A DNA stretch of 64,000 nucleotides from an uncultured Dehalococcoidia bacterium (GCA_951812625.1 CATOSP010000001.1:200065-264064); one strand, 5' to 3'. Numbered from the stretch's first letter, positions 52,620-64,000 are shown. Numbers and translations: made by a program. The notes: generated by a model not told the origin, from the sequence alone.

Positions 52620-53225
52620 TCATTGCCTGGCGACGGTCTTCCTCCTTCGTGAGAACTGACGCTCTACTCCGGTGACCCTCATTCGGAAATCCATCATCTG
52701 CCTACTAACCCCAAATTCGTCGCACGCTACATCCTTCGGCCTCTTTTGGGCACTCAATCTCACAAGGGCATCCCTAGGTAGCAACAGGGCGCCAGCGAGC
52801 CAATTTGCCTCTTCTTCGGCAGCCTTGTTAAACCCACGTAAGGCGAGGTTCTCCTGCCCAGCGAAAAACATAGTGCTTGGTTCATGGCCTAGCAAGAGGT
52901 GAGCCAATTCGTGCATCACATCGCTGGAATAGCGACCACGCCGGTGATTTGGGTTTAGGATGATGGCGTCCCGGTTAGCGGCCGATACAGTTATAGCGGA
53001 CCAAGAATCCGGGTCGCTATGCACCAGTTGCGTGACGTCGGCAGGAGCTAATCCAAGGTCTTCGACTGACCAAAGATATACTCCCAAATACGACGCGAGT
53101 TGTTCTGCTGGTAAGGGGGCAGCCGGGTCCAAGCCTAACTCTGCTCGTAGCGAGCGGGACATCTCCTCACAGCGGGTTTTAAAGCCCTTCTCCATCCACT
53201 TCTCCCACCTTTCCAGGTGCATCAT
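52620..53225 (-). CDS. capP: ImmA/IrrE-family Zn metallopeptidase (CapP-like)
   Basis: HELAHLLLGH (HEXXH) and a 201-aa length. It lies immediately downstream of, and overlaps, the XRE gene. Confidence 0.7.
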   Translation of the reverse strand: MMHLERWEKWMEKGFKTRCEEMSRSLRAELGLDPAAPLPAEQLASYLGVYLWSVEDLGLAPADVTQLVHSDPDSWSAITVSAANRDAIILNPNHRRGRYSSDVMHELAHLLLGHEPSTMFFAGQENLALRGFNKAAEEEANWLAGALLLPRDALVRLSAQKRPKDVACDEFGVSRQMMDFRMRVTGVERQFSRRRKTVARQ

Positions 53226-53574
53226 GCAACATCAACTGTGCCCTGAGAATGGCGTTAGCCAGAGCGCCCGCCGTGTTCGGGTCGATCTCGCGATGTGCCT
53301 TCAGGTGCGCAGCAGCGACATGGGTAGGGGTTGTTTCCGTTGATTGGGGCGTAACGTCCAAAAGGGCACCCGGGTCTACACCTAGCCAGCGACATAGTTT
53401 CCCGAAGGTTTGGAGGTCGGGCATTTTGCCTGACTCAATGCGAGAGAGGGTCGGCGCGCTGGTGCCAATTTCGCTCGCCACCGTCCTAAGCCCTCGAGAA
53501 CCCCGTTTTTCACGGACAATGGTTCCTAGGTTCTGTAATGTGACCTTAACCACAGCGCCTCCCGTTCCAGCCAT
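53179..53574 (-). CDS. capH: XRE-family helix-turn-helix regulator (CapH-like)
   Basis: LRTVASEIGTSAPTLSRIESGK is an XRE HTH. The gene is divergent from the CBASS-like operon. Confidence 0.7.
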   Translation of the reverse strand: MAGTGGAVVKVTLQNLGTIVREKRGSRGLRTVASEIGTSAPTLSRIESGKMPDLQTFGKLCRWLGVDPGALLDVTPQSTETTPTHVAAAHLKAHREIDPNTAGALANAILRAQLMLHDAPGKVGEVDGEGL

Positions 53575-53686
53575 GAAACAACGTCTTGACAGCGTAACGT
53601 CTGTTGGGTTAGCCTATGCGTAACCCTAGCAAAACGCTGTTTCACTCGTGGTGATTGGATGATAATCAAGAACCAAGCCGTAGTCA
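53575..53686. promoter_or_regulatory. Divergent control region between the XRE regulator and the patatin gene
   Basis: TTGACA at 53586-53591 with TAGCCT about 18 nt downstream. ACGTCT is repeated at 53582 and 53597, and a related ACGCTGTT sits at 53634. Confidence 0.3.
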
Positions 53687-54667
53687 ATGGTGGTGTTCGG
53701 AGAGCTTGTCGTGTCTAGCTTCGACCGGACAAGGCCACCGACAGTTCCAACAGAGAGCTTCAGCATCCTGGCGGTGGATGGAGGTGGTACGAGAGGGATT
53801 TACGCCGCTCAAATCCTTGCCAAAGTCGAAGATGCTCTCGGGCGGCAGGTCAACGACTGTTTTGACCTTCTCGCTGGGACGAGCACCGGATCCATCATCA
53901 CGGGAGCCGCGGCGTCGGGAGTTCCATTGAAAGAAGTGGTCGCTTTATTCGAGAAAGAATCGCCGCGCATTTTTGGGAAAGCCCGCTTTCCTGCTCGCAT
54001 CTCCGTGTTCTGGCGTAGCCGGTACTCCAGGACGACTCTCGAAAGCGTGCTACAAGAATACCTGCCCCAGGCCGTCCTTCGGGATATATCGACCCCACTG
54101 ATGATAACGAGCGCTGATATAGCCACGGGCGGAGTCCACGTCTTCAAGTCCCGCTACTTGGGCGATCTCGGAGAACCCTATGAGAGGGACGGAGAGGTGC
54201 TCCTCAGCGATGCGATTCTTGCCTCCTGCGCGGCGCCGACCTATTTCGACCCCAAGGCAGTGGGGCCGTATCTGCTGACGGATGGCGGCCTTTGGGCCAA
54301 CAATCCGTCAATCATAGCGTTTACCGAGGCTGTATCAAAATTCAAGAAGGAGGTGGCGGAGGTAAGAGTTTTGTCCGTAGGCACTGGCCACACGACGACC
54401 ATGTACACGAAACGGAGTTCTTGGGGCCTCCTGACCGGATGGGGAGGTAACAAGCTGGTCTCATACACTTTGGGGCTTCAATCACAGGCTTCTACGAACA
54501 TGGCAAAGCTTATTTTAGGCGACCGATACCTGCGTCTTGACCCGGAGATTGACAGCTGGGAATTGGACGATACCAGGCACCTCGCTAACCTAAAAGCTCT
54601 CGCAGAGAGGGATTTCACATACCGGTCCAAAACAATCCTAGACCACATAAGGAGAAACACCGAATGA
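53687..54667 (+). CDS. Patatin-like phospholipase (CapV-like CBASS effector)
   Basis: DGGGTRG oxyanion motif, GTSTGS nucleophile elbow and a DGG catalytic Asp region. Confidence 0.85.
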   Translation: MVVFGELVVSSFDRTRPPTVPTESFSILAVDGGGTRGIYAAQILAKVEDALGRQVNDCFDLLAGTSTGSIITGAAASGVPLKEVVALFEKESPRIFGKARFPARISVFWRSRYSRTTLESVLQEYLPQAVLRDISTPLMITSADIATGGVHVFKSRYLGDLGEPYERDGEVLLSDAILASCAAPTYFDPKAVGPYLLTDGGLWANNPSIIAFTEAVSKFKKEVAEVRVLSVGTGHTTTMYTKRSSWGLLTGWGGNKLVSYTLGLQSQASTNMAKLILGDRYLRLDPEIDSWELDDTRHLANLKALAERDFTYRSKTILDHIRRNTE

Positions 54668-55623
54668 AGCGGGTAGAAGACTTCAACGAATTCCTGTCCA
54701 ACCATGTGAACATCAACCAGTCCCGGTTGGACGATCTGAACGACCATGTCGCGGCTGTGACGACGCACTTGAGTCGGGACTTGGAGTCGTTCAAAAAAGT
54801 GGAGCGCCAAGGCTCCTATGCCTTGCGGATGATTATCAAGCCGAAGGAAAAGAAGGAATACGACGCCGACGTGCTGCTCTTCATGAAGTACCAGCCGGGA
54901 AAGAAACCTGCCGAGTACATCAACGACGCTTACAACTGCCTCCGGCAACACGGCACCTACAAGGACATGGTGCATAGGAAGACCCGCTGCGTGATGGTGG
55001 ATTACGCCGGGGATTTTCACTTGGACATCGTTCCTTGCGTCGAGTTCAACGGCCAACGCTACGTCTGCAACAACAAGACCAACCAGTTCGAAGTCACGGA
55101 CGGAACCGGCTATCGGGACTGGTTCAACCGGAAGACCCAGATCACCAACGGCAATCTCAAGCGAGCCACAAGGGTTCTCAAGTATATGCGAGACCACAAG
55201 GGCAACTTCACCGCCCCTTCGATCCTCCTCACCACTCTTATCGGAATGAGTGTGCAGGACAACGAGGGCGACGCCTGCTTCAAAACCGTCCCCGACACGT
55301 TGAAGACGGTATGCAACCGCATAAACGCTTTCTTGCAGGCCAATCCCAACCAGCCCGAAATACGCAACCCGGTGCTACACCAGGAGACCTTCACGCGGCA
55401 TTGGGACCAGAACAAGTACCGGAACTTCCGGGACAAGTTCAAGATTTACAATGACCAAGTAAACGACGCCTATGATGAGACCGACCCCCAGAAGAGCGTA
55501 CAGAAATGGCAGAAGCTGTTCGGTGAGGACTTCGGCAAGTCGAAGTCCAAGAGCAGCGGAGCGTCTGGCGCCGCGGCAATGGCTGCCACGACCGTAACTC
55601 CCAGGAAGCCTTGGGCGAGATGA
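54664..55623 (+). CDS. SMODS/CD-NTase-type nucleotidyltransferase (putative cyclic oligonucleotide synthase)
   Basis: QGSYALRMIIKP....EYDADVLLF....FHLDIVPC gives the pol-beta GS / DxD / D triad. ATGA overlap with the patatin stop. Confidence 0.75.
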   Translation: MKRVEDFNEFLSNHVNINQSRLDDLNDHVAAVTTHLSRDLESFKKVERQGSYALRMIIKPKEKKEYDADVLLFMKYQPGKKPAEYINDAYNCLRQHGTYKDMVHRKTRCVMVDYAGDFHLDIVPCVEFNGQRYVCNNKTNQFEVTDGTGYRDWFNRKTQITNGNLKRATRVLKYMRDHKGNFTAPSILLTTLIGMSVQDNEGDACFKTVPDTLKTVCNRINAFLQANPNQPEIRNPVLHQETFTRHWDQNKYRNFRDKFKIYNDQVNDAYDETDPQKSVQKWQKLFGEDFGKSKSKSSGASGAAAMAATTVTPRKPWAR

Positions 55624-56252
55624 AACTGCAAGACACTGATCCGGAATGGCTGGCATCAAACTTCCCGGAATTGGATTTCCAGCCGGATGGCCAGCAGATT
55701 ACCGGGGAGCTTCGCTTCTGCGCTGCCTTTGACCGGGACTCAGGCCAACTGAGGTTGGGTGACACCGACGAGCATCGGGCAATTGGCACTTTTCTGTGCG
55801 ACGCGTTCAAGGTAAGGATCGACTTGGGCCATCTGGGAGACAATGGATGGCCCAGGGTCTATGAGGTTGGCGGGCGTTGCATCGACATTGCGGAGCAAAA
55901 TCAATGCGCTATGATTGACCTGCATCTGTTTGAAGATGGAGCTTGCTGCTTAGGTCTGAATTTCGCCACCGACAGGAATCTTACCCTTCACCGGTTTGTG
56001 CTCGAGCTGGTGATTCCCTTCTTTTACCGCCTGTCTTACACCGACCGTAATGGGTTGGCTGCTGCCAAGGACGACCTGTGGGGAGAGTATTTCCACGGGG
56101 ATGCTGGTGTACGCAAATACAAAGAGGAGATTCTCCAACTGGTCGGCAACAATCCTGGTAGAAACGAATCTTGCCCTTGCGGGAGTGGGCTAAAATACAA
56201 GAGATGCCACTTGGACGAAGTAGAAGCAGTTAAACGCCGTTGGTTGCGCTAA
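55620..56252 (+). CDS. SEC-C-motif protein, possibly an E2/UBC-like CBASS accessory
   Basis: C-terminal CPCGSGLKYKRCH. F.V.IDL....GWPRVYEVGG...IDLHLFEDGACCLGL resembles the UBC layout (YP..PP.v.F...HPN...G.iCl). ATGA overlap with the CD-NTase stop. Confidence 0.45.
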   Translation: MKLQDTDPEWLASNFPELDFQPDGQQITGELRFCAAFDRDSGQLRLGDTDEHRAIGTFLCDAFKVRIDLGHLGDNGWPRVYEVGGRCIDIAEQNQCAMIDLHLFEDGACCLGLNFATDRNLTLHRFVLELVIPFFYRLSYTDRNGLAAAKDDLWGEYFHGDAGVRKYKEEILQLVGNNPGRNESCPCGSGLKYKRCHLDEVEAVKRRWLR

Positions 56253-56278: not shown

Positions 56279-59200
56279 GTGACAACATCCACCGTCAACC
56301 CAATACCTTTCCGCCTTGAATCCACCTTCGGAGCCGGCCGAAAATGGACTTCCCAGGCTGGCTCTATTGCTACAGCCTGGGAGTTGCCCGCCTACCATCT
56401 GCTGTGGGCCGGTGACACAACCGCCGAAGGTGAAGTCCGCAGATTGTGGGAGGCGAGAAAGGGCCGCCAAGCCTATCCTGTGGTCCTACTGTCCCCGTCG
56501 GACGATGAAACGAAAGTCAAGGTGGCCGGCCCGCAGGACGCTCGCCCGGTACGGGAATTGCCCGTCGGCCGGGTACTCGACCTGCTGGAAGACAGCCATA
56601 ACCTAGCGGCCCGCGAAGCGGCATCGTTCCTGGCGAGGGAGTTCGCCCGCCTTGAGGAGGCCGTGGTTCCCGGCCTGCGGGTCAAGGACCTGCTCACGCC
56701 TCATTTCCTACGGGAGCGGATGCGCTGGCCCGTGAACCGGGGGCGATTGTCCGGCGCTGTTGAAGGCAAGGGACGCACTGGGAGTATCGCATGGCGCTCC
56801 CTGTTTCAGGAAATGGGTTACCAAGTGGAGCAACTGCCGCAGCGCGGCTACCTGCTCCGGTACGACAACGCTCCGGTTGCCGTCGTACATCCCCACCGCG
56901 ACCCATCCCAGTTCAGCCGTCTCACAGACAACGGGGAACTGCCCGAAGGAATGGTGCTGGCTGACTGCGGGCAGTACGGAGCTCAGTGGGGCGTCCTGGC
57001 AGCATCCGGACGCTACCGGCTTTTCCAGCGGCGGCCTCCGGTCGGCCCGGCTACCGGGCAGCACTTGGAAATAGATACGGCTGAGTTGGAACGGAAAGAC
57101 CGTTTTTATCTTGGCCTTCTTGCGCCGGAATCTCTCAAGGAAGATGGCTGGCTGACCGGGTGGGTTGCGGAAGCGAAGGACTTTGGCGAAGAGTTGCGCA
57201 AGGGACTGGAAGAGCGCCTGATCAAGGACGCGCTACCCAACATCGCCCGGGGCTTGGGCGAGTATCTTGAATCGCTGGGCACCGACTTGAACGACCCTGA
57301 ACAGCTTCGGCAGATTGAAGAGGCGGCGCTGACTCTGGTGTTTCGGTTCATGTTCCTGCTTCACACCGAAGCCCGTGGCTACCTGCCCATTGGTTCGGCG
57401 GCTTACCGACCCCACAGCGCCCGTCAACTGGCCGAGGATTCCCGCCTGGCCGGGTCTTCCCTCAGCCGGAAAGCCACACAACGGTGGGACCGCTTGCGGA
57501 CTCTCGTGCGGATGATTCGAACCGGGGACCGCTCCGCTGGGGTCCCCGCGTACAACGGCAGCCTGTTTGCTGCCGACGGCTTCCCCGGCAGCGCCTTGCT
57601 GGAACGGGCCGAGATTGCCGACGTTTACCTGGCTCCCGCCCTCGTGTCCATCGCCTATGAAACCGATAAGGTCGACTCTCCGGGGTTGGACTACGCCGGC
57701 CTACAAATCGGCCACCTTGGAGCCATCTATGAAGCCTTGCTGACCTTGAGGCTGACCCGTGCACCCGAAGACCTGGCCTACGATTCTAAGCGTGACATGT
57801 TTCGACCCATTCGTTCTGGAGAGAAGCCGGAGCTCACCAAGGCCCAACTCTATTACCAATCGGAGGCGGGCGGGCGCAAGGCTCGGGGAGTTTTTTACAC
57901 CCGCCACGAGTTCGTTAGCCACCTGCTGAATCATTCTCTGTTGCCCGCCCTCGACGACCATTTGGCCGAAATCGGGGAGGTGGCTGACCGGAGTCCCATT
58001 GAAGCCGCGCAGAGGCTCTTTGATTTCTCCGTTGTGGACCCGGCGATGGGCAGCGCCCACTTCCTCACGGCGGCCTTGGATATGATGGCCGACCGTATCG
58101 AGATTTTCCTGGCCGAGGTTGGCGGCTTGCCCGGTATTGCTCAGCAACTCAGCGAGTTGAGTCAGGACAGCGGAGCAGTCTCCCAGCAGCCGGAGGACGG
58201 GGACCTGCTGCGGCGACTCGTCCTAAAACGCTGCATCTACGGCGTTGACCTTTCCCCCATGGCGGTGGAAGTCGCCAATGTCACCCTGTGGCTGGCGTCT
58301 TTCGTCCCTGGTCTGGCCCTCTCCTACCTGGGCAGCAACCTTAAATGCGGCGATGCCCTCATCGGCGTGGCCGACCCTTCCGTTGTCGGGGCCAGCGACA
58401 GCCCCATGTTCACCGGCCAGAACGTGCGTAACGCGATGGAACAAGCGGCCCGGTTGCAACGGGAGCAGGCGGCCATTCCAGACCGTACTCCCGAAGAGGT
58501 CAAACGCTCCGAGGAACTTGGCGCTCAGCGCGACGAGGCTACCGCCGGTCTGCGGTCAGCTTTCGACCTGTGGACGGCGGAACCGCTGGGACTGGACGGC
58601 GCCCGCCATACCCTGGAGACCCACGCGGACTCCATCATCGAAGCTGGCAAACAGTCGGCTGCTGAAGTTACGGATGCGATTGCGGAAGCATCGCATATCG
58701 GCAGCCAATACCGCTTTTTCCACTGGCCCCTGGAGTTACCCAACGTTTTTTACCGGGAACGTGCAGGATTCGACGTGGTTGTGGGCAATCCACCGTGGAA
58801 CGAAATAACCATCGAGGAACTGGCCTTCTACGCGCTGCGTGAGCCAGGACTGCGTGGATTGCCTAATCTAGCTGAAAGAAGAAAGCGCATAGCGCAACTC
58901 GACAAACAAAACCCTGACTGGCGAGAGGAGTTTGAGGACCAGCAGAGACAATTGAAAACAGTCCGGGGGTTCTTTTCAGAAAGCGGGGGATACCAGCTTC
59001 AAGGAGTAGGCGACAAAGATCTGTACCAACTCTTTTGCGAGCGGTACAGCCATCTCGTTAGGCAGGATGGTCGTTTAGGAGTAGTGCTACCCAGAACGGC
59101 ATTCCTTGCAGAAGGTGCCAAGGGTTTCAGGAGATGGTTGTATGAGCGGACCACGGTAACGACGGTCGACTTTCTCTTGAATGCTGGGCGCTGGGCGTTT

Positions 59201-60262
59201 GATATGGAACCTCGGTACACAGTTGCACTGTTGACTGCTCAACGCAGAACACCAAGCAAGGAAGCCACTTTCCAAATAACAGGACCTTCCGCAAACCTCA
59301 AAGAGTTCCATGATGCGTCACTCGGCCAAGGCGTAAGCGTTCCGGCGTCCTCCTTGGGAAGCGCCCGGGTAGTGCCTCTGTTGCCAAGCCAGATGCACGC
59401 CGATGTGTTAGCCAAATTACGTCGCGGCGTCCAGTTCGATTCGCTCCAAAATCCCGAAAATCAAAAAATTTCAAAAGGGCGCGCTGCTGTGTCTCATCTA
59501 GCTCCCTATACGGAATTGCATGAGACACAGCAGCGCGCCCTTTTCTCTCATTCCAGAGGTTTTCCAGTGTGGAAGGGCCGGTCCTTTGATCAGTACGAGC
59601 CTCATGGTAATGAACCTGCCGGGTACTCCAAGTGGAATGAGGTCCTTTCTTGGGCACAACAGAAGCGCAAGCGATCCCCCGTCTTCAAGCGGATGTTCTC
59701 CACCGAAGAACTTTCCGATCCTAATACCCACCCAATAAACTACTGCCGAGTCGCATTCCGGGATGTGACACGAACCACCGACTCCCGAACAGTAAGAGCC
59801 TGCTTGGTTCCACCACGGACGCCGTTAACCAACAAAGGACCGTACTTGATATTTTCTGGGTGGAGCAGTTTGGCACAGGCCAGCGTCTTGGGGACTTTGA
59901 ACAGCCTTCCGTTTGACTGGATTGCCCGGCGTTACGTTGAAACGAACATGAACTACTTTATTTTGAATATGCTCACCTTCCCACCGCCAGCTAACACTCC
60001 TTGGCAGGGCATCGGCAGATTGGCAGCACGGCTGTCCTGCGTGGACGAGCGGTTCGCTGACTTTGCGGCGGAGACCGGAGTGCAGTGCGGGCCGTTGACC
60101 GATGCCGACCGCAACGACAAGCGGGCGGAAATCGACGCACTGGTGGCTCACGCCTACGGGCTGACCGAGGACGAACTGCGGTTCATATTCACCGACTTCA
60201 CCGAGAACGCTGTTACTCCCGCCTACCGGGAGAAAGTCTTGGAATGGTTCGAGCGTTTGTAA
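56279..60262 (+). CDS. Large N6-adenine DNA methyltransferase of the Eco57I / MmeI / PglX-like (type IIG / BREX / DISARM-MI) kind
   Basis: AYNGSLF, GVFYTRHEFV, VVDPAMGSAHFL (motif I, about nt 58034), IYGVDLSPMAVEVA and FHWPLELPNVF...FDVVVGNPPW (motif IV at nt 58787-58798). About 340 aa of the N-terminus are unassigned. Confidence 0.8.
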   Translation: MTTSTVNPIPFRLESTFGAGRKWTSQAGSIATAWELPAYHLLWAGDTTAEGEVRRLWEARKGRQAYPVVLLSPSDDETKVKVAGPQDARPVRELPVGRVLDLLEDSHNLAAREAASFLAREFARLEEAVVPGLRVKDLLTPHFLRERMRWPVNRGRLSGAVEGKGRTGSIAWRSLFQEMGYQVEQLPQRGYLLRYDNAPVAVVHPHRDPSQFSRLTDNGELPEGMVLADCGQYGAQWGVLAASGRYRLFQRRPPVGPATGQHLEIDTAELERKDRFYLGLLAPESLKEDGWLTGWVAEAKDFGEELRKGLEERLIKDALPNIARGLGEYLESLGTDLNDPEQLRQIEEAALTLVFRFMFLLHTEARGYLPIGSAAYRPHSARQLAEDSRLAGSSLSRKATQRWDRLRTLVRMIRTGDRSAGVPAYNGSLFAADGFPGSALLERAEIADVYLAPALVSIAYETDKVDSPGLDYAGLQIGHLGAIYEALLTLRLTRAPEDLAYDSKRDMFRPIRSGEKPELTKAQLYYQSEAGGRKARGVFYTRHEFVSHLLNHSLLPALDDHLAEIGEVADRSPIEAAQRLFDFSVVDPAMGSAHFLTAALDMMADRIEIFLAEVGGLPGIAQQLSELSQDSGAVSQQPEDGDLLRRLVLKRCIYGVDLSPMAVEVANVTLWLASFVPGLALSYLGSNLKCGDALIGVADPSVVGASDSPMFTGQNVRNAMEQAARLQREQAAIPDRTPEEVKRSEELGAQRDEATAGLRSAFDLWTAEPLGLDGARHTLETHADSIIEAGKQSAAEVTDAIAEASHIGSQYRFFHWPLELPNVFYRERAGFDVVVGNPPWNEITIEELAFYALREPGLRGLPNLAERRKRIAQLDKQNPDWREEFEDQQRQLKTVRGFFSESGGYQLQGVGDKDLYQLFCERYSHLVRQDGRLGVVLPRTAFLAEGAKGFRRWLYERTTVTTVDFLLNAGRWAFDMEPRYTVALLTAQRRTPSKEATFQITGPSANLKEFHDASLGQGVSVPASSLGSARVVPLLPSQMHADVLAKLRRGVQFDSLQNPENQKISKGRAAVSHLAPYTELHETQQRALFSHSRGFPVWKGRSFDQYEPHGNEPAGYSKWNEVLSWAQQKRKRSPVFKRMFSTEELSDPNTHPINYCRVAFRDVTRTTDSRTVRACLVPPRTPLTNKGPYLIFSGWSSLAQASVLGTLNSLPFDWIARRYVETNMNYFILNMLTFPPPANTPWQGIGRLAARLSCVDERFADFAAETGVQCGPLTDADRNDKRAEIDALVAHAYGLTEDELRFIFTDFTENAVTPAYREKVLEWFERL

Positions 60263-60263
60263 G

Positions 60264-63200
60264 ATGACTACTCGCCAGCCCCGGTTTACCCCCCTCGGCA
60301 GTTCTTACGAACTGGTCGATAACGATGTCTTCGGCTCCCACGAACAGGCGTTGGAGTGGCTGGCGAACACCTATGTCGATCCCCTCAACGTCGCCACCGG
60401 ATACGTCAGTCTGGAAGGGCTGGACGCACTGGCGAAGATAGTGACCGGCAGGGTCGGCGGAGGCAGGCTCCTTATCGGGGCAACCCCCTTGTCCGAGAGC
60501 CTAATTGGTCCGGTAAGCGAGACCATAGCCGGGCGGCTTGAACAATCGGTGAGTTCGCTGGGGCGGCAGCGGGACTTCTCGGCCTTTCCTGCCGCCCGCC
60601 GGGCTGTCCTGGAGCGGGTGACAGGTTTCATCGAGGCCGGGAACGTTGAGGTTAAACGGTACGCCAGGGGCTTCCTGCACGGCAAGGCGTACATCTTCGG
60701 CGATTTCGAAGGCAGGACCATCGGGACCGGCGCGGCCCTGGTTTCTTCGGCCAACCTCACCTTCGGCGGCTTGGTGTCCAACCGGGAACTGGGCATGGTT
60801 CACTACCAGCCCAACGTGGTGGCGATGGCGTTGGACTGGTATCAGCGCTTGTGGGATGACGCCTTGGATTTTCGGGAAGGGTTGCTGGAACTGCTGCGAC
60901 CTCCGTTACTGGAGAGCGATCCGCAAACCGTGTTCCTGCGGGCTCTGCTGGAACTTTACCAGAGCGACTTAGATGACGCTGAAGTTGACCTTCCCGACCT
61001 CCACACGCTTACCGCTTTCCAACGGGACGGGTTGGCGCGGGCCAAACGCATTCTGGATCAGCACGGCGGCGTCCTTTACGCCGACGGCGTGGGCATGGGT
61101 AAGACCGAGATCGGCGTCCAGTTCATCCGGGAGTACATTCGGGACCGTGGGCAATACGCTCTGGTAATCTCCCCGGCACAGTTGCGGGACCACCTGTGGG
61201 ACCAGCGCCTGAGCGAAGAGAACGTCCGCACAACCGTGGTTTCCTATCAACAGTTGGCCCAAGACCGCCAACTCGTCGCTCGCGGCGGGCGACAAGTCTT
61301 ACCGGTAGATAAGGACTCATACCGGTTGGTCGTAATTGACGAGGCACACGCCTACCGCAACGTGGACAACACCTGGTACGCGGCACTGGACCGCCTCATG
61401 GGAGGTACGCCGAAGAAGCTGCTCCTTTTGACCGCCACGCCGGTCAACAACTCCCTGTGGGATCTGCACAACCTCTTCCTACTATTCGCACGCCACGACA
61501 GCGCCTTCAGTGGGGAACCACTGAGGATTTCCAGCTTGCGGAAGTTCTTTACCGACGCCGGCGCGTCCAGGACTGAAAACCTCTCTGAGGCCAAGCTGTT
61601 CCCTTTGGTCGACGCTCTGACGGTGCGGCGTGACAGGGCTTTTATCAAGGACCGCTACCGGAACGAGCGATTCATTGACGGAACGCCAGTCAAGTTCCCC
61701 GAACCGGAACTGCATGAGCGCCGTTATGACTTGGACAACGCCCATCCCGGAATCGTCCAGGCCATTTACGACGGGATAGACGGTCTGACAATGGCCCGTT
61801 ATCGCCTGTCAGCCTATAGGGTAGACAAACAGGAAGAGTCAGCGTCGGAAGAAGCGCTGGCCGGTTTGATACAGTCCCAATTGCTGAAACGCTTCGAGTC
61901 GTCCTGGTATGCGGCGCTGCAAACCGTGAACAGGATGCGAGATGGCAACGACGTGCTGCTACGTGTTATCAGAGAGCGGGGAGTTGTGCCGCCTCCGGAG
62001 GTCATCAGGGACTTGGTTGGCGATTCCAGAGAGGATGACACCTTCCTTAGCACCGACCTGATTGACGAGGCATTGGCCGACTCCGAGGGCGGGATTTCCG
62101 CTGACAAGTTCAACGACCATTTCTTGCCAGACTTGGAAAGAGACCGGGATGCCCTGGCAGCCATGTCAATACAGTTGGAGCACTTGGAGGGCAGACCCGA
62201 TCCCAAGCTGGATACCCTCACAGAGGTAATGTCCGCGACGCCCTCCCAGAAGATAGCGGTGTTCACAGCTTTCCAGGACACCGCCACCTACTTGAAGGAG
62301 CAAATCGAGAGTCAACCGGAAGTGTTAGGGCACCGTAATTGGACGGTGGTGATTGGTTCCGAGACCAGTGCCGATGCCCGTACCAGGGAGCTTGAAAGGT
62401 TCTGCCCGGAGTCGGTCACGGACGAGCCGGGCTTTGTGCCTGAAAACGGCGAAGTGGACGTAATCATCAGCACCGACATCCTCTCGGAGGGGCAGAACCT
62501 TCAGCAAGCCCAAGCTGTACTCTCTTTTGACATGCCCTGGAACCCCCAGCGCGTAGTGCAGCGCAATGGCCGCATCATCCGCCTGCGCAGCCCCCACGAC
62601 ACCGCGTACCTCTACACTCTGCTTCCCGAACAGGGGGACCTGGACCGACTGTTGAGACTGGAGGCCAAGCTCCAGGCAAAAATTATGGCAGCGAACGCGT
62701 CAGTGGGTATGGAAACTCCGGTGTTGGCCGACGTAGAAACCGAATCTCAAGTGTACGCTGATCTGAACACTTTTGTAGAACGTCTTGCCAGTGGAGACAC
62801 GACCCTGCTGGACGAGCAGGAAAGCAGCGGGGAGAGCGGTTCGGCGTTTGCGGGTGAACTATTCCGCTCCCATCTTCGCCGGGCGGCCGAGGAAGGCGAA
62901 GTGGACCGGCTCCAGAGCTTGCCCTGGGGCATCGGAGCCGCTTTCGTTCAACGACTGCCGTCACTGGCGGAGCCTGCGGTGTTCTTCGCCTGCCGCACTC
63001 GTGGCGATGAACGCTACTGGCGCATGGTGTCCCAATCAGGAGAAATCCTGCACCGGGATGACTTACCGATGCTCCGCTTGATAGACCCCCAGCAACAACC
63101 TGGCATTCCTGTCCCCGATGGTCTCGACCTGGAGCATCTGTTTACGGTTGCTGCCGACGACATCTGCGCCGAGCATAACGCGCTGCTCGACCCTGAAACG

Positions 63201-63521
63201 CGGTTCGCTTCCCTTCCGGCCAGCCAGCGTTGGGCGCTGGACGTATTACGTTCACCGGACGCTCCATCCGGCGATGAGTACGACGAGGGAGACCAAGCCC
63301 TTTCGGTAGGCCGGAACAACCTAGTCAGGCGTCAGTTATCCGAACTGCGGCGGGAGTACGAAGGTGGCGGCATGAGCGTGACTGACTGTGCTCGTCGGAT
63401 CACAGAAGTAGTCGCACAGTTCGGACTGCGCGTGGTGGGACTTCCCCAAGCTCCCGAACCTATAACTGAGGACGACCTTGGAGTCGTCTGCTACCAGGTG
63501 GTGGTGCCGTCGAGAATGTAG
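60264..63521 (+). CDS. PLD-nuclease / SNF2-family helicase fusion
   Basis: LHGKAYIF...SSANLT is a single HKD motif (about nt 60678-60761). SNF2 motifs are DGVGMGKT, VIDEAHAYRN, LLLTATPVNNSLWDL, SEGQNLQ and QRNGRIIR. The start lies 1 nt after the MTase stop. Confidence 0.8.
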   Translation: MTTRQPRFTPLGSSYELVDNDVFGSHEQALEWLANTYVDPLNVATGYVSLEGLDALAKIVTGRVGGGRLLIGATPLSESLIGPVSETIAGRLEQSVSSLGRQRDFSAFPAARRAVLERVTGFIEAGNVEVKRYARGFLHGKAYIFGDFEGRTIGTGAALVSSANLTFGGLVSNRELGMVHYQPNVVAMALDWYQRLWDDALDFREGLLELLRPPLLESDPQTVFLRALLELYQSDLDDAEVDLPDLHTLTAFQRDGLARAKRILDQHGGVLYADGVGMGKTEIGVQFIREYIRDRGQYALVISPAQLRDHLWDQRLSEENVRTTVVSYQQLAQDRQLVARGGRQVLPVDKDSYRLVVIDEAHAYRNVDNTWYAALDRLMGGTPKKLLLLTATPVNNSLWDLHNLFLLFARHDSAFSGEPLRISSLRKFFTDAGASRTENLSEAKLFPLVDALTVRRDRAFIKDRYRNERFIDGTPVKFPEPELHERRYDLDNAHPGIVQAIYDGIDGLTMARYRLSAYRVDKQEESASEEALAGLIQSQLLKRFESSWYAALQTVNRMRDGNDVLLRVIRERGVVPPPEVIRDLVGDSREDDTFLSTDLIDEALADSEGGISADKFNDHFLPDLERDRDALAAMSIQLEHLEGRPDPKLDTLTEVMSATPSQKIAVFTAFQDTATYLKEQIESQPEVLGHRNWTVVIGSETSADARTRELERFCPESVTDEPGFVPENGEVDVIISTDILSEGQNLQQAQAVLSFDMPWNPQRVVQRNGRIIRLRSPHDTAYLYTLLPEQGDLDRLLRLEAKLQAKIMAANASVGMETPVLADVETESQVYADLNTFVERLASGDTTLLDEQESSGESGSAFAGELFRSHLRRAAEEGEVDRLQSLPWGIGAAFVQRLPSLAEPAVFFACRTRGDERYWRMVSQSGEILHRDDLPMLRLIDPQQQPGIPVPDGLDLEHLFTVAADDICAEHNALLDPETRFASLPASQRWALDVLRSPDAPSGDEYDEGDQALSVGRNNLVRRQLSELRREYEGGGMSVTDCARRITEVVAQFGLRVVGLPQAPEPITEDDLGVVCYQVVVPSRM

Positions 63522-63743: not shown

Positions 63744-64000
63744 ATGGATGCAATGTTTGACGATGCAGTCGTCGTTTTCCCAGCTTCGACCAGCAGACCC
63801 ATCGCTGAGCCATGCGTCGAGATGTACGAGTTCATCTCAGCCGCGTCACGATCCGCAGCCGCCGGGGTCGAAGTTCTCGACCGCCTAAACACTGAGGACG
63901 ATCCGCACCTTGTCGCCGCCCTAAAGAGATACATTGAGGACACAGGACAAGCACTGAAGGAAGTAGACAACCGGCTCAAGAAGCTGCATTCTGGGCTGAA
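63744..64000 (+). CDS. 5' part of a further ORF running off the window (function unknown)
   Basis: MDAMFDDAVVVFPAS...LKRYIEDTGQALKEVDNRLKKLHSGL has natural composition. The frame is open from 63561, and a TTG at 63567 is possible. The competing minus ORF 63491..63979 is Ser/Arg-rich. Confidence 0.4.
   Translation, partial: MDAMFDDAVVVFPASTSRPIAEPCVEMYEFISAASRSAAAGVEVLDRLNTEDDPHLVAALKRYIEDTGQALKEVDNRLKKLHSGL

Follow-up and report, generated by a model that had tools for sequence, protein, structure and literature searches.

Type ISP restriction-modification (R-M) enzymes couple ATP-dependent translocation to a collision-dependent cleavage of DNA at head-to-head sites. Phospholipase D (PLD) enzymes with a single HKD motif, such as Nuc, BfiI, and SauUSI, form their active site as dimers, and in the MmeI family, specificity is reportedly set by covarying residue pairs (work ascribed to Morgan and Luyten, 2009). 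BREX (bacteriophage exclusion)-related systems are defined by DUF499 together with a DUF1156-type methylase, to which their Type 2 adds DUF3780 and an HKD+Swi2/Snf2 effector (Rakesh and Krishnan, PMC12839542). For MANTIS, it has been proposed that the methylase directs recognition and that a PLD-helicase effector, a dimer sharing a single PLD active site, acts afterward (bioRxiv 10.64898/2026.09.23.753747). Two loci listed by Milman et al. (2023; PMC9881135) have a PLD(cd09178)+SNF gene next to a Cj0031-like Type II R-M gene; Cj0031 is phase variable by means of a polyG tract, whereas their cases vary by programmed inversions. In this study, we have analyzed a window of 64,000 nucleotides (nt) from an uncultured Dehalococcoidia bacterium (GCA_951812625.1 CATOSP010000001.1:200065-264064; "the window" denotes this whole stretch), in which a gene for a large adenine methylase is followed immediately by a gene for a PLD-SNF2 protein and carries within its coding sequence a palindrome with an invertible loop. 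Literature searches found no paper characterizing the pair or the flip element, and exact-sequence look-ups returned no record for either window protein.

Judged from their sequences, the two genes combine familiar domains in a distinct, conserved two-gene arrangement that is R-M-like and ATP dependent. The explanation that we favor, on balance and by a little, is a self-contained two-subunit ATP-dependent R-M module, in effect a split Type ISP enzyme, with the palindrome as its probable specificity toggle.

Domain content and conservation of the gene pair

Gene 1 (56279-60262, + strand) has a GTG start and encodes 1327 amino acids (aa); its TAA stop is separated by a gap of 1 nt from the ATG start of gene 2 (60264-63521, + strand; 1085 aa), and these open reading frame (ORF) calls bear out the positions and sizes proposed in an earlier reading made from the sequence alone (here, the sequence-only reading). 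A purine-rich stretch, GAGAGGGA, lies upstream of the GTG. All further protein features of the two genes are given on the + strand.

Profile searches and collinear full-length homologues, down to 29% identity, identify gene 1 as a methylase and predicted specificity subunit, laid out as an N-terminal domain (N-domain), a helical domain, a gamma-class N6-adenine methyltransferase (MTase), and a C-terminal predicted target-recognition region (aa ~850-1327; 58830-60259). Pfam Eco57I matched it at 9e-20, MmeI_Mtase matched in part, and the PADLOC model REase_MTase_IIG (PDLC03620) matched over its full length, with residues 49-1310 corresponding to profile positions 53-1355 (5e-116), in agreement with the earlier call of an MmeI/Eco57I-type gamma-class adenine MTase. 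The three motifs on which that call had relied were all located: AYNGSLF in the helical domain before the MTase core (57548-57568; aa 424-430), which is invariant in close homologues; motif I, DPAMGSAHFL, for S-adenosylmethionine (AdoMet) binding (58037-58066; aa 587-596); and the catalytic motif IV, GNPPW (58784-58798; aa 836-840). Motifs I and IV with a helical domain before them and a predicted target-recognition domain (TRD) after them are the makeup of a Type IIG/IIL MTase. The catalytic motifs of both genes are invariant or nearly so across 33 to 45 homologues and are therefore not degenerate; degenerate MTase motifs would have counted against the sequence-only reading. The least conserved part of gene 1 spans aa 841-1080 (mean identity, 0.52 to 0.66), and PDB sequence and profile searches with this protein gave no close solved relative. 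Many methylase fragments of 290 to 1000 aa, on very long contigs, were seen in the clusters of P0171, P0159, P0205, and P0235, which suggests either frequent frameshifts and pseudogenization or consensus errors in long-read assemblies.

Gene 2 was assigned by Pfam, PADLOC, and PDB profile searches; PLDc_2, SNF2-rel_dom, and Helicase_C match the same chain, and the motifs and Pfam agree with the earlier statement that one HKD motif is fused to a complete SNF2 ATPase. The single HKD-type motif, FLHGKAY...SSANLT (60672-60761; aa 137-166, within PLDc_2 residues 113-197), has the HxK...(G)SxN pattern of the PLD/HKD superfamily, and its residues H139, G140, K141, S162, A163, and N164 are invariant in homologues. 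With a cut-off of 27 bits, PLDc_2 scores gene 2 at 28.2 bits and its Halorubrum homologue at 43.5 bits. Because there is one HKD motif per chain, an active PLD site would need two chains, that is, dimerization. The SNF2 ATPase core (61086-62591), delimited by Pfam, conservation, and PDB profile searches, contains Walker A (motif I), GVGMGKTE (61086-61109; aa 275-282); DEAH (motif II; 61338-61349; aa 359-362); motif III, recognized by conservation (61431-61454); and motif VI, QRNGRIIRLRS (62559-62591; aa 766-776). It also resembles Rad54, RapA, and ISWI, as expected of the SNF2 family, and PDB profile matches (RapA, Rad54, SsoRad54, ISWI, and ZorD) cover the SNF2 core only; the PDB searches returned nothing beyond such generic cores. 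The C-terminal region, aa ~840-1085 (62781-63518), is conserved (mean identity, ~0.8), and its 245 residues have no Pfam match. The best PADLOC model for gene 2 was "HKD+Snf2" (C3a139; 8e-49). This label is not that of a defined system, being an entry in the list of Type III CRISPR-associated gene clusters of Shah et al. 2019 (PMC6546367), and the PLD+SNF2 fusion has already been catalogued as CDD cd09178, as cited by Milman et al. (PMC9881135).

The two genes are conserved with each other and with nothing else. We matched the window methylase against 44 related loci with flanks of up to 10 kb by tblastn and clustered all of the flanking ORFs. A gene 1 homologue lies within 10 kb of the gene 2 homologue in 39 of the 44, directly upstream and on the same strand in the majority of loci, and from locus to locus, the gene 1 and gene 2 products show correlated identities to their counterparts in the window (r=0.87). 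No third conserved gene was found across the 44 loci, every other family being common to at most 9 of them. The same ordered pair, with similar sizes and ~30% identity (29 to 33%), is present on three plasmids (L058-L060) from the archaeon Halorubrum lacusprofundi (pHLAC01), Euzebya pacifica, and Rhodococcus erythropolis; alignment of the Halorubrum methylase with gene 1 extends over residues 49-1324 at 29% identity (E=1e-149), and this protein is likewise of the Eco57I type. This two-gene-only conservation, together with the recurrence of the ordered pair on distant plasmids, argues for an old, self-contained two-gene module. Domain content, intact motifs, and strict two-gene conservation are direct observations; methylation, cleavage, and contact between the subunits are the activities that they would imply.

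Close relatives are numerous. More than 120 cluster representatives were found for each protein, at 71 to 87% identity for gene 1 and 74 to 93% for gene 2, and a scan of species-representative genomes gave 42 close loci at 54 to 91% identity (L003-L044), almost all in metagenome-assembled genomes annotated as Chloroflexota or Dehalococcoidia. The other annotations include Candidatus Entotheonella (81%), Binatia (73%), Acidimicrobiales (70%), and Gemmatimonadota (64%). The 91% identity to L003 makes a Chloroflexota metagenome-assembled genome the probable source of the window as well. Identities of 64 to 81% across differently annotated lineages suggest recent horizontal transfer of the pair within one community type. 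The isolate names of several relatives resemble marine-sponge sample codes. A scan of viral contigs and a pattern scan of JGI metagenomes added nothing.

In two loci the methylase gene is disrupted beside an intact PLD-SNF2 gene, by an insertion sequence (IS) element in L002 and by an insertion in L009; if cutting depends on the specificity subunit, as in the design proposed here, such a loss of the methylase would be safe. The space between the two genes is an insertion hotspot. In close relatives (L001, 9619-9990; L017, 8118-9975; L021, 7945-9997) it holds PIN, Uma2, or DUF5131 with a protein of ~360 to 430 aa of unassigned family. Other large methylases partner the more distant, plasmid-borne PLD-SNF2 homologues (L061-L064), and small toxin or defense cassettes frequently lie in between, namely, VapC on Synechocystis pSYSX, AbiEii in Thermococcus, a nucleotidyltransferase with SLATT in Microcystis, and DUF262 in Deinococcus.

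The invertible palindrome in the methylase gene

Within the predicted recognition region of gene 1 lies a 72-nt palindrome (59473-59544) that consists of two perfect 25-nt arms (59473-59497 and 59520-59544), formed by the left arm AAAAGGGCGCGCTGCTGTGTCTCAT and its complement, around an invertible loop of 22 nt (59498-59519), CTAGCTCCCTATACGGAATTGC. It encodes KGRAAVSH-LAPYTELH-ETQQRALF (aa 1066-1089) and falls inside the most variable segment of the protein. No other palindrome of this kind occurs in the 64-kb window, and a genome-wide element resembling repetitive extragenic palindromic (REP) sequences was rejected on that ground. The predicted folds are very stable, at -34 kcal/mol (z=-11) for single-stranded DNA and -53 kcal/mol for RNA.

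The palindrome is maintained while its sequence changes. It is carried by 35 of 38 related gene copies, which come from several phyla and encode methylases as little as 53% identical, and is absent from distant homologues. There are 29 distinct left arms, which differ by lineage and stay complementary to their partners; 98.8% of arm positions pair, compensatory double changes have occurred at 17 of the 25 arm pairs, and the number of compensatory cells is 107, compared with 23.5 ± 4.5 in shuffles. Sliding the partner by 1 to 3 columns reduced pairing to 30 to 55%. G-U pairs are nearly absent and the changes are strictly Watson-Crick, which points to complementarity at the level of DNA and disfavors an explanation by RNA structure.

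Two loop orientations are found, each the exact reverse complement of the other and both in frame. In the S state, which is that of the window, the protein reads ...SH-LAPYTELH-ET..., and in the flipped F state it reads ...SH-AIPYRELD-ET..., so that the flip swaps four amino acids. L019 and L036 share the S orientation, and L003, L004, and L010 have the F orientation; over all copies with the palindrome, 16 have the same orientation as the window, 18 are flipped, and 1 (L009) is a hybrid. The S state is found in 57 and the F state in 52 of 120 cluster representatives, and both states occurred in each of the 10 clusters examined at 90% identity. The closest comparison is that of L006 and L007, which are collinear over 14,185 nt and differ by 3 single-nucleotide polymorphisms and the inverted loop; certain S/F protein pairs differ by one other residue in 1241 to 1327 aa. 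Thus, as in programmed inversions, both orientations are found among near-identical genomes, and flipping appears to be fast relative to point mutation. An assembly artifact is an unlikely source of the two states, since the 25-nt arms are shorter than the usual final k-mer or read lengths and both states occur across assembly naming styles; one of the states is also found in records deposited as complete chromosomes. No recombinase was conserved near the pair among the clustered flanking genes of the 44 loci, and by analogy with the known behavior of inverted repeats, the inversion is likely to proceed via a hairpin or a template switch.

What the flip might mean for the protein is indicated by the homologues that lack the palindrome. 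The inversion exchanges both x and z in the sequence x-E-L-z (T..H to R..D and back). This motif is kept in distant homologues without a palindrome, where x and z covary; among 11 representatives at 50% clustering, six have R/D, three have T, I, or A with H, one has Q/N, and one has R/N, and close variants without the palindrome carry ...QELNET.... Because R/D and T/H pairs both recur in palindrome-free homologues, the switch alternates between two allelic states that are used elsewhere in the family, and the exchanged residues would look like a specificity-determining pair. While the maintenance of the palindrome and its frequent flipping are seen directly, a change of specificity on flipping is what we infer. 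We tentatively propose a recombinase-independent, in-frame hairpin-loop inversion switch that toggles a specificity-determining pair in a two-subunit restriction system and has spread horizontally among lineages whose annotations name five or more different groups; this more specific proposal falls somewhat short of being probable.

The strongest competitor accepts the pair as an R-M module and regards the palindrome as a self-perpetuating quasi-palindrome, its arms kept alike by arm-to-arm template switching, with a neutral loop flip, or else as a DNA- or RNA-level regulator acting through pausing, processing, or the dosage of gene 2. It is well established that chloroplast hairpins undergo minute inversions and that quasi-palindromes undergo template switching, and an inversion of the loop is to be expected of any long hairpin. 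The strict Watson-Crick pairing with almost no G-U fits a mechanical homogenization of the arms, and the stability of the predicted hairpin fits either form of this explanation. Signs of mechanical instability also exist: L009 (7131-7202) has a hybrid loop of both orientations, with 33-nt arms and a 6-nt loop, and in P0173 the palindrome-encoded segment has been cleanly deleted, both of which we read as by-products of palindrome instability. However, long palindromes are known to be unstable, and this one has been kept in nearly all of the related copies, in a single place in 64 kb and in the most variable segment of the protein, where each orientation is in frame and encodes a residue pair that distant homologues use without any palindrome. 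We therefore consider a neutral or regulatory palindrome unlikely, although it deserves to be taken seriously.

One module, two neighbors, or part of a larger system

It can also be envisioned that the two genes are independent neighbors, gene 1 being a single-chain Type IIG/IIL enzyme that cuts with its own N-domain and gene 2 a stand-alone nuclease-helicase, for example, a Type IV enzyme like SauUSI. In favor of this, the IIG model covers nearly the whole of gene 1 as noted above, SauUSI is a PLD-helicase able to act alone, and two loci (L027 and L030) hold a PLD-SNF2 gene with no nearby methylase gene. The sequence-only reading had left some 340 N-terminal residues unassigned, and these, the N-domain (aa 1-340; 56279-57298), do form a real domain: AlphaFold2 (AF2) predicted two alpha/beta subdomains followed by a long helix with confidence (pLDDT [the predicted local distance difference test score], 86.5), and a Foldseek search against PDB gave nothing significant (best E=0.02; template modeling [TM] score, ~0.15). 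The weak, scattered, nonsignificant matches include the PD-(D/E)xK proteins HsdR, Hjc, and BpuSI, which would suit a nuclease; since all have E values of 0.02 or higher, we do not claim a PD-(D/E)xK-like fold. Across 17 diverse homologues (21 to 61% identity), no conserved D...(D/E)xK or acidic/lysine constellation was found in aa 1-340, where the only invariant residues are G84, G132, L138, P222, R247, L248, L286, L306, and P320. A full-library search for the N-domain recovered only 269 representatives (E<=1e-3) among 1.84 billion proteins, and complete proteins that bear it are all ~1250 to 1360 aa long.

As far as these comparisons can tell, the N-domain is confined to this family of methylases and does not act as a nuclease; it probably couples the methylase to gene 2 in a docking or regulatory role. 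With neither conserved acidic and lysine residues nor a fold match in the N-domain, the PLD of gene 2 is the sole recognizable nuclease. Moreover, gene order, adjacency, and codivergence have been kept from Chloroflexota to haloarchaea, and a Pfam scan of gene 2 detected no modified-base reader domain of the kind that a Type IV enzyme would use. Two independent neighbors are thus improbable.

It is very improbable that the pair is a fragment of a larger catalogued system (DISARM [defense island system that is associated with restriction-modification] class 1 or an Hma/Type-2 BREX-related system) whose remaining genes lie past the end of the window, for although the window continues just 479 nt past gene 2, Type-2 BREX-related systems use an HKD+Swi2/Snf2 effector (PMC12839542), and there are partial matches to DrmMI (1e-64), DrmD (5e-25), and HmaA (3e-22), no third gene, as expected of any such system, is conserved in the 44 loci and their 10-kb flanks, gene 1 is Eco57I-type where BREX-related systems need DUF499, a DUF1156-type methylase, and DUF3780, and the locus continues otherwise in a close relative, L002.

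The partial matches are confined to catalytic cores. DrmMI models match gene 1 residues 516-841 only, and full-length membership in DrmMI or DrmD was rejected; the NCBIfam model DISARM_DrmD covers only residues 514-837 of gene 2 and scores 109 bits, where its cut-off is 610; and the HmaA match covers gene 2 residues 658-787 only. Neither DrmA (a YprA-like DEAD helicase) nor DrmB (DUF1998) is among the conserved neighbors in the 44 loci, DUF499 is found neither there nor among the window's own neighbors (which are CBASS genes), and none of the 15 to 17 annotated genes per plasmid locus (L058-L060) has a DrmA/DrmB-like or DUF499-like product name. Gene 2 does have the HKD+Swi2/Snf2 architecture of the Type-2 BREX-related effector; this is an architectural match of the effector that does not imply orthology. 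Of the sequence-only reading, therefore, the domain calls and the idea of a split Type ISP-like pair have held up, whereas its suggestions of DISARM class 1 and of Hma (helicase-methylase-ATPase) have not, the former because the two genes alone are conserved and the Drm matches are limited to cores, the latter because gene 1 is Eco57I-type and a third conserved gene is absent.

The same reading had asked whether downstream genes would complete a catalogued system, and the continuation in L002 gives no sign of one. L002 is the nearest relative whose sequence runs on beyond the window end. The 479-nt tail of the window is 96% identical in nucleotide sequence to L002 11284-11762, and a partial ORF that runs from ~63663 off the window end at 64000 has a counterpart of 256 aa in L002 with a subthreshold HepT-like (HEPN) match. 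In L002 (11425-15954), this weak HepT-like gene is followed by Replic_Relax and then by HTH_17. A Replic_Relax-like gene lies 3' of the pair in 6 loci, a hint that the pair is carried on a mobile element.

Upstream, profile searches identified a complete CBASS (cyclic oligonucleotide-based antiphage signaling system) operon directly 5' of gene 1 on the same strand, with genes for a patatin effector (53687-54667, +), a CD-NTase (54664-55623, +), and an E2/SEC-C protein (55611-56252, +); with an M78 (CapP-like) peptidase gene on the opposite strand (52620-53225, -), it spans 52620-56252. The gap to the methylase gene is 26 nt, in which no terminator-like site was found, and the same CBASS-plus-pair arrangement is seen again in L003, L004, L005, and L010. 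With GmrSD and HEPN genes near the L002 copy, CBASS places the pair in a defense-island setting, which we count in support of a defense role. The GC content is 0.535 to 0.55 at 48 to 56 kb, compared with ~0.60 to 0.64 elsewhere in the window, and the majority of ORFs at 45 to 52 kb have no Pfam match, which together are consistent with an acquired island. No tRNA genes were found in 40 to 64 kb, and none of the ten ORFs scanned in 43.4 to 53.6 kb matched an integrase.

Proposed mechanism and comparison with known systems

The mechanism that we envision for a two-subunit R-M module has the same logic as Type ISP enzymes and the MANTIS working model, minus the AAA+ loader. Gene 1 would read a short, probably asymmetric DNA site through its C-terminal region and methylate adenine there, marking self DNA. 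At unmodified sites, it would instead recruit, load, or license gene 2, whose SNF2 motor would then translocate on double-stranded DNA, and two single-HKD PLD domains, brought together either in a standing dimer or by two converging motors, would form one cutting site. The nonnuclease N-domain of the methylase would probably couple the subunits. Inversion of the 22-bp loop, without a dedicated recombinase, would convert LAPYTELH to AIPYRELD and back and probably switch the target specificity.

Several points weigh against this model. AF2 modeled gene 2 poorly (pLDDT, 52), reaching ~75 to 87 in aa 900-1085 only, and the C-terminal region of gene 1 owes the label of recognition domain to where it lies, how variable it is, and analogy. 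In 5 of the 44 loci, no intact methylase gene adjoins the PLD-SNF2 gene, so that PLD-SNF2 alone might have some function. Flipping within populations is deduced from comparisons between assemblies and not from reads, and the covariation of R..D and T..H could be purely structural, within a helix. The proposed role of the flip is open to direct test, because natural genome pairs exist that differ only by the flip.

If the model is correct, the pair represents a minimal two-gene ATP-dependent restriction system composed of a methylase/specificity subunit and a PLD-SNF2 nuclease-motor, and it could offer a simple setting for studying the licensing of a PLD-helicase effector by a methylase, which has not yet been reconstituted for MANTIS. 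If the loop acts as proposed, it would be a new class of contingency locus, based on a 22-bp in-frame inversion without a recombinase, and a minimal way, not described before, of making restriction and methylation specificity phase variable. Short hairpin loops in coding regions may also be an easily overlooked source of protein variation in metagenome assemblies.

The proposed loop switch is reminiscent of Type I hsdS inversions, in which inverted repeats flank a segment whose inversion changes the specificity encoded by hsdS. Unlike hsdS switching, in which the gene copies are separate, the segments are long, and a recombinase usually takes part, it is confined to a 22-bp in-frame loop in one gene. 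In physical terms, it is closest to chloroplast hairpins, whose 20- to 30-bp arms enclose a loop of ~20 bp that flips spontaneously, but those inversions are noncoding.

Among restriction enzymes, MmeI-family Type IIL/IIG proteins (MmeI, Eco57I, and Cj0031) share with gene 1 the helical domain, the gamma-class MTase, the C-terminal recognition region, and the types of motif; gene 1 differs in that its N terminus lacks PD-(D/E)xK catalytic residues and in having a separate nuclease-motor partner. Gene 2, in turn, resembles the Type IV enzyme SauUSI, which also has an N-terminal PLD followed by a superfamily 2 (SF2) ATPase in one chain, and the PLD-mediated dimerization and ATP-driven translocation before cutting that characterize SauUSI may apply to gene 2. 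SauUSI, however, has its own modified-cytosine reader and attacks modified DNA, whereas gene 2 is tied to a methylase and has no detected reader. A Type III R-M system was rejected, since gene 1 is a gamma-class Eco57I-type enzyme and not a beta-class Mod with an internal TRD, and gene 2 is an SNF2 protein with an N-terminal PLD and not a Res, which would be an SF2 helicase ending in a C-terminal PD-(D/E)xK domain.

The likeness to larger defense systems is one of components. DISARM class 1 also combines an Eco57I-type adenine methylase, an SNF2 ATPase, and a PLD nuclease, and DrmMI and DrmD are the best named partial matches; the pair has no conserved DrmA or DrmB, and its PLD and SNF2 are fused. 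MANTIS/Gao_RL (MtsA-D) and the Type-2 BREX-related systems likewise join a specificity-directing methylase to a PLD/HKD-helicase effector, and MtsD forms a dimer in which a single PLD site is shared, as the single HKD motif of gene 2 would also lead one to expect. Both kinds of system depend on an AAA+ ATPase (DUF499/MtsA) and on the accessory protein MtsB or DUF3780, and the BREX-related methylase is of the DUF1156/PglXI type, whereas that of the pair is a 1327-aa Eco57I-type protein with its own predicted recognition region.

The closest functional parallel is with the Type ISP enzymes LlaGI and LlaBIII, which contain the same set of parts, namely, a nuclease, an SF2 double-stranded DNA translocase ATPase, a gamma-class N6-adenine methylase, and a TRD, and in which, as predicted for the pair, one recognition domain serves both modification and restriction. 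Unlike a Type ISP enzyme, which is a single chain, the pair is split over two polypeptides, its nuclease is a single-HKD PLD rather than an Mrr/PD-(D/E)xK domain, its motor is of the SNF2 family, and its methylase has the extra 340-aa N-domain; membership in Type ISP at the sequence level is absent. If our interpretation is correct, the pair would occupy a position between Type ISP, DISARM, and the BREX-related/MANTIS systems, with representatives in both bacteria and archaea.

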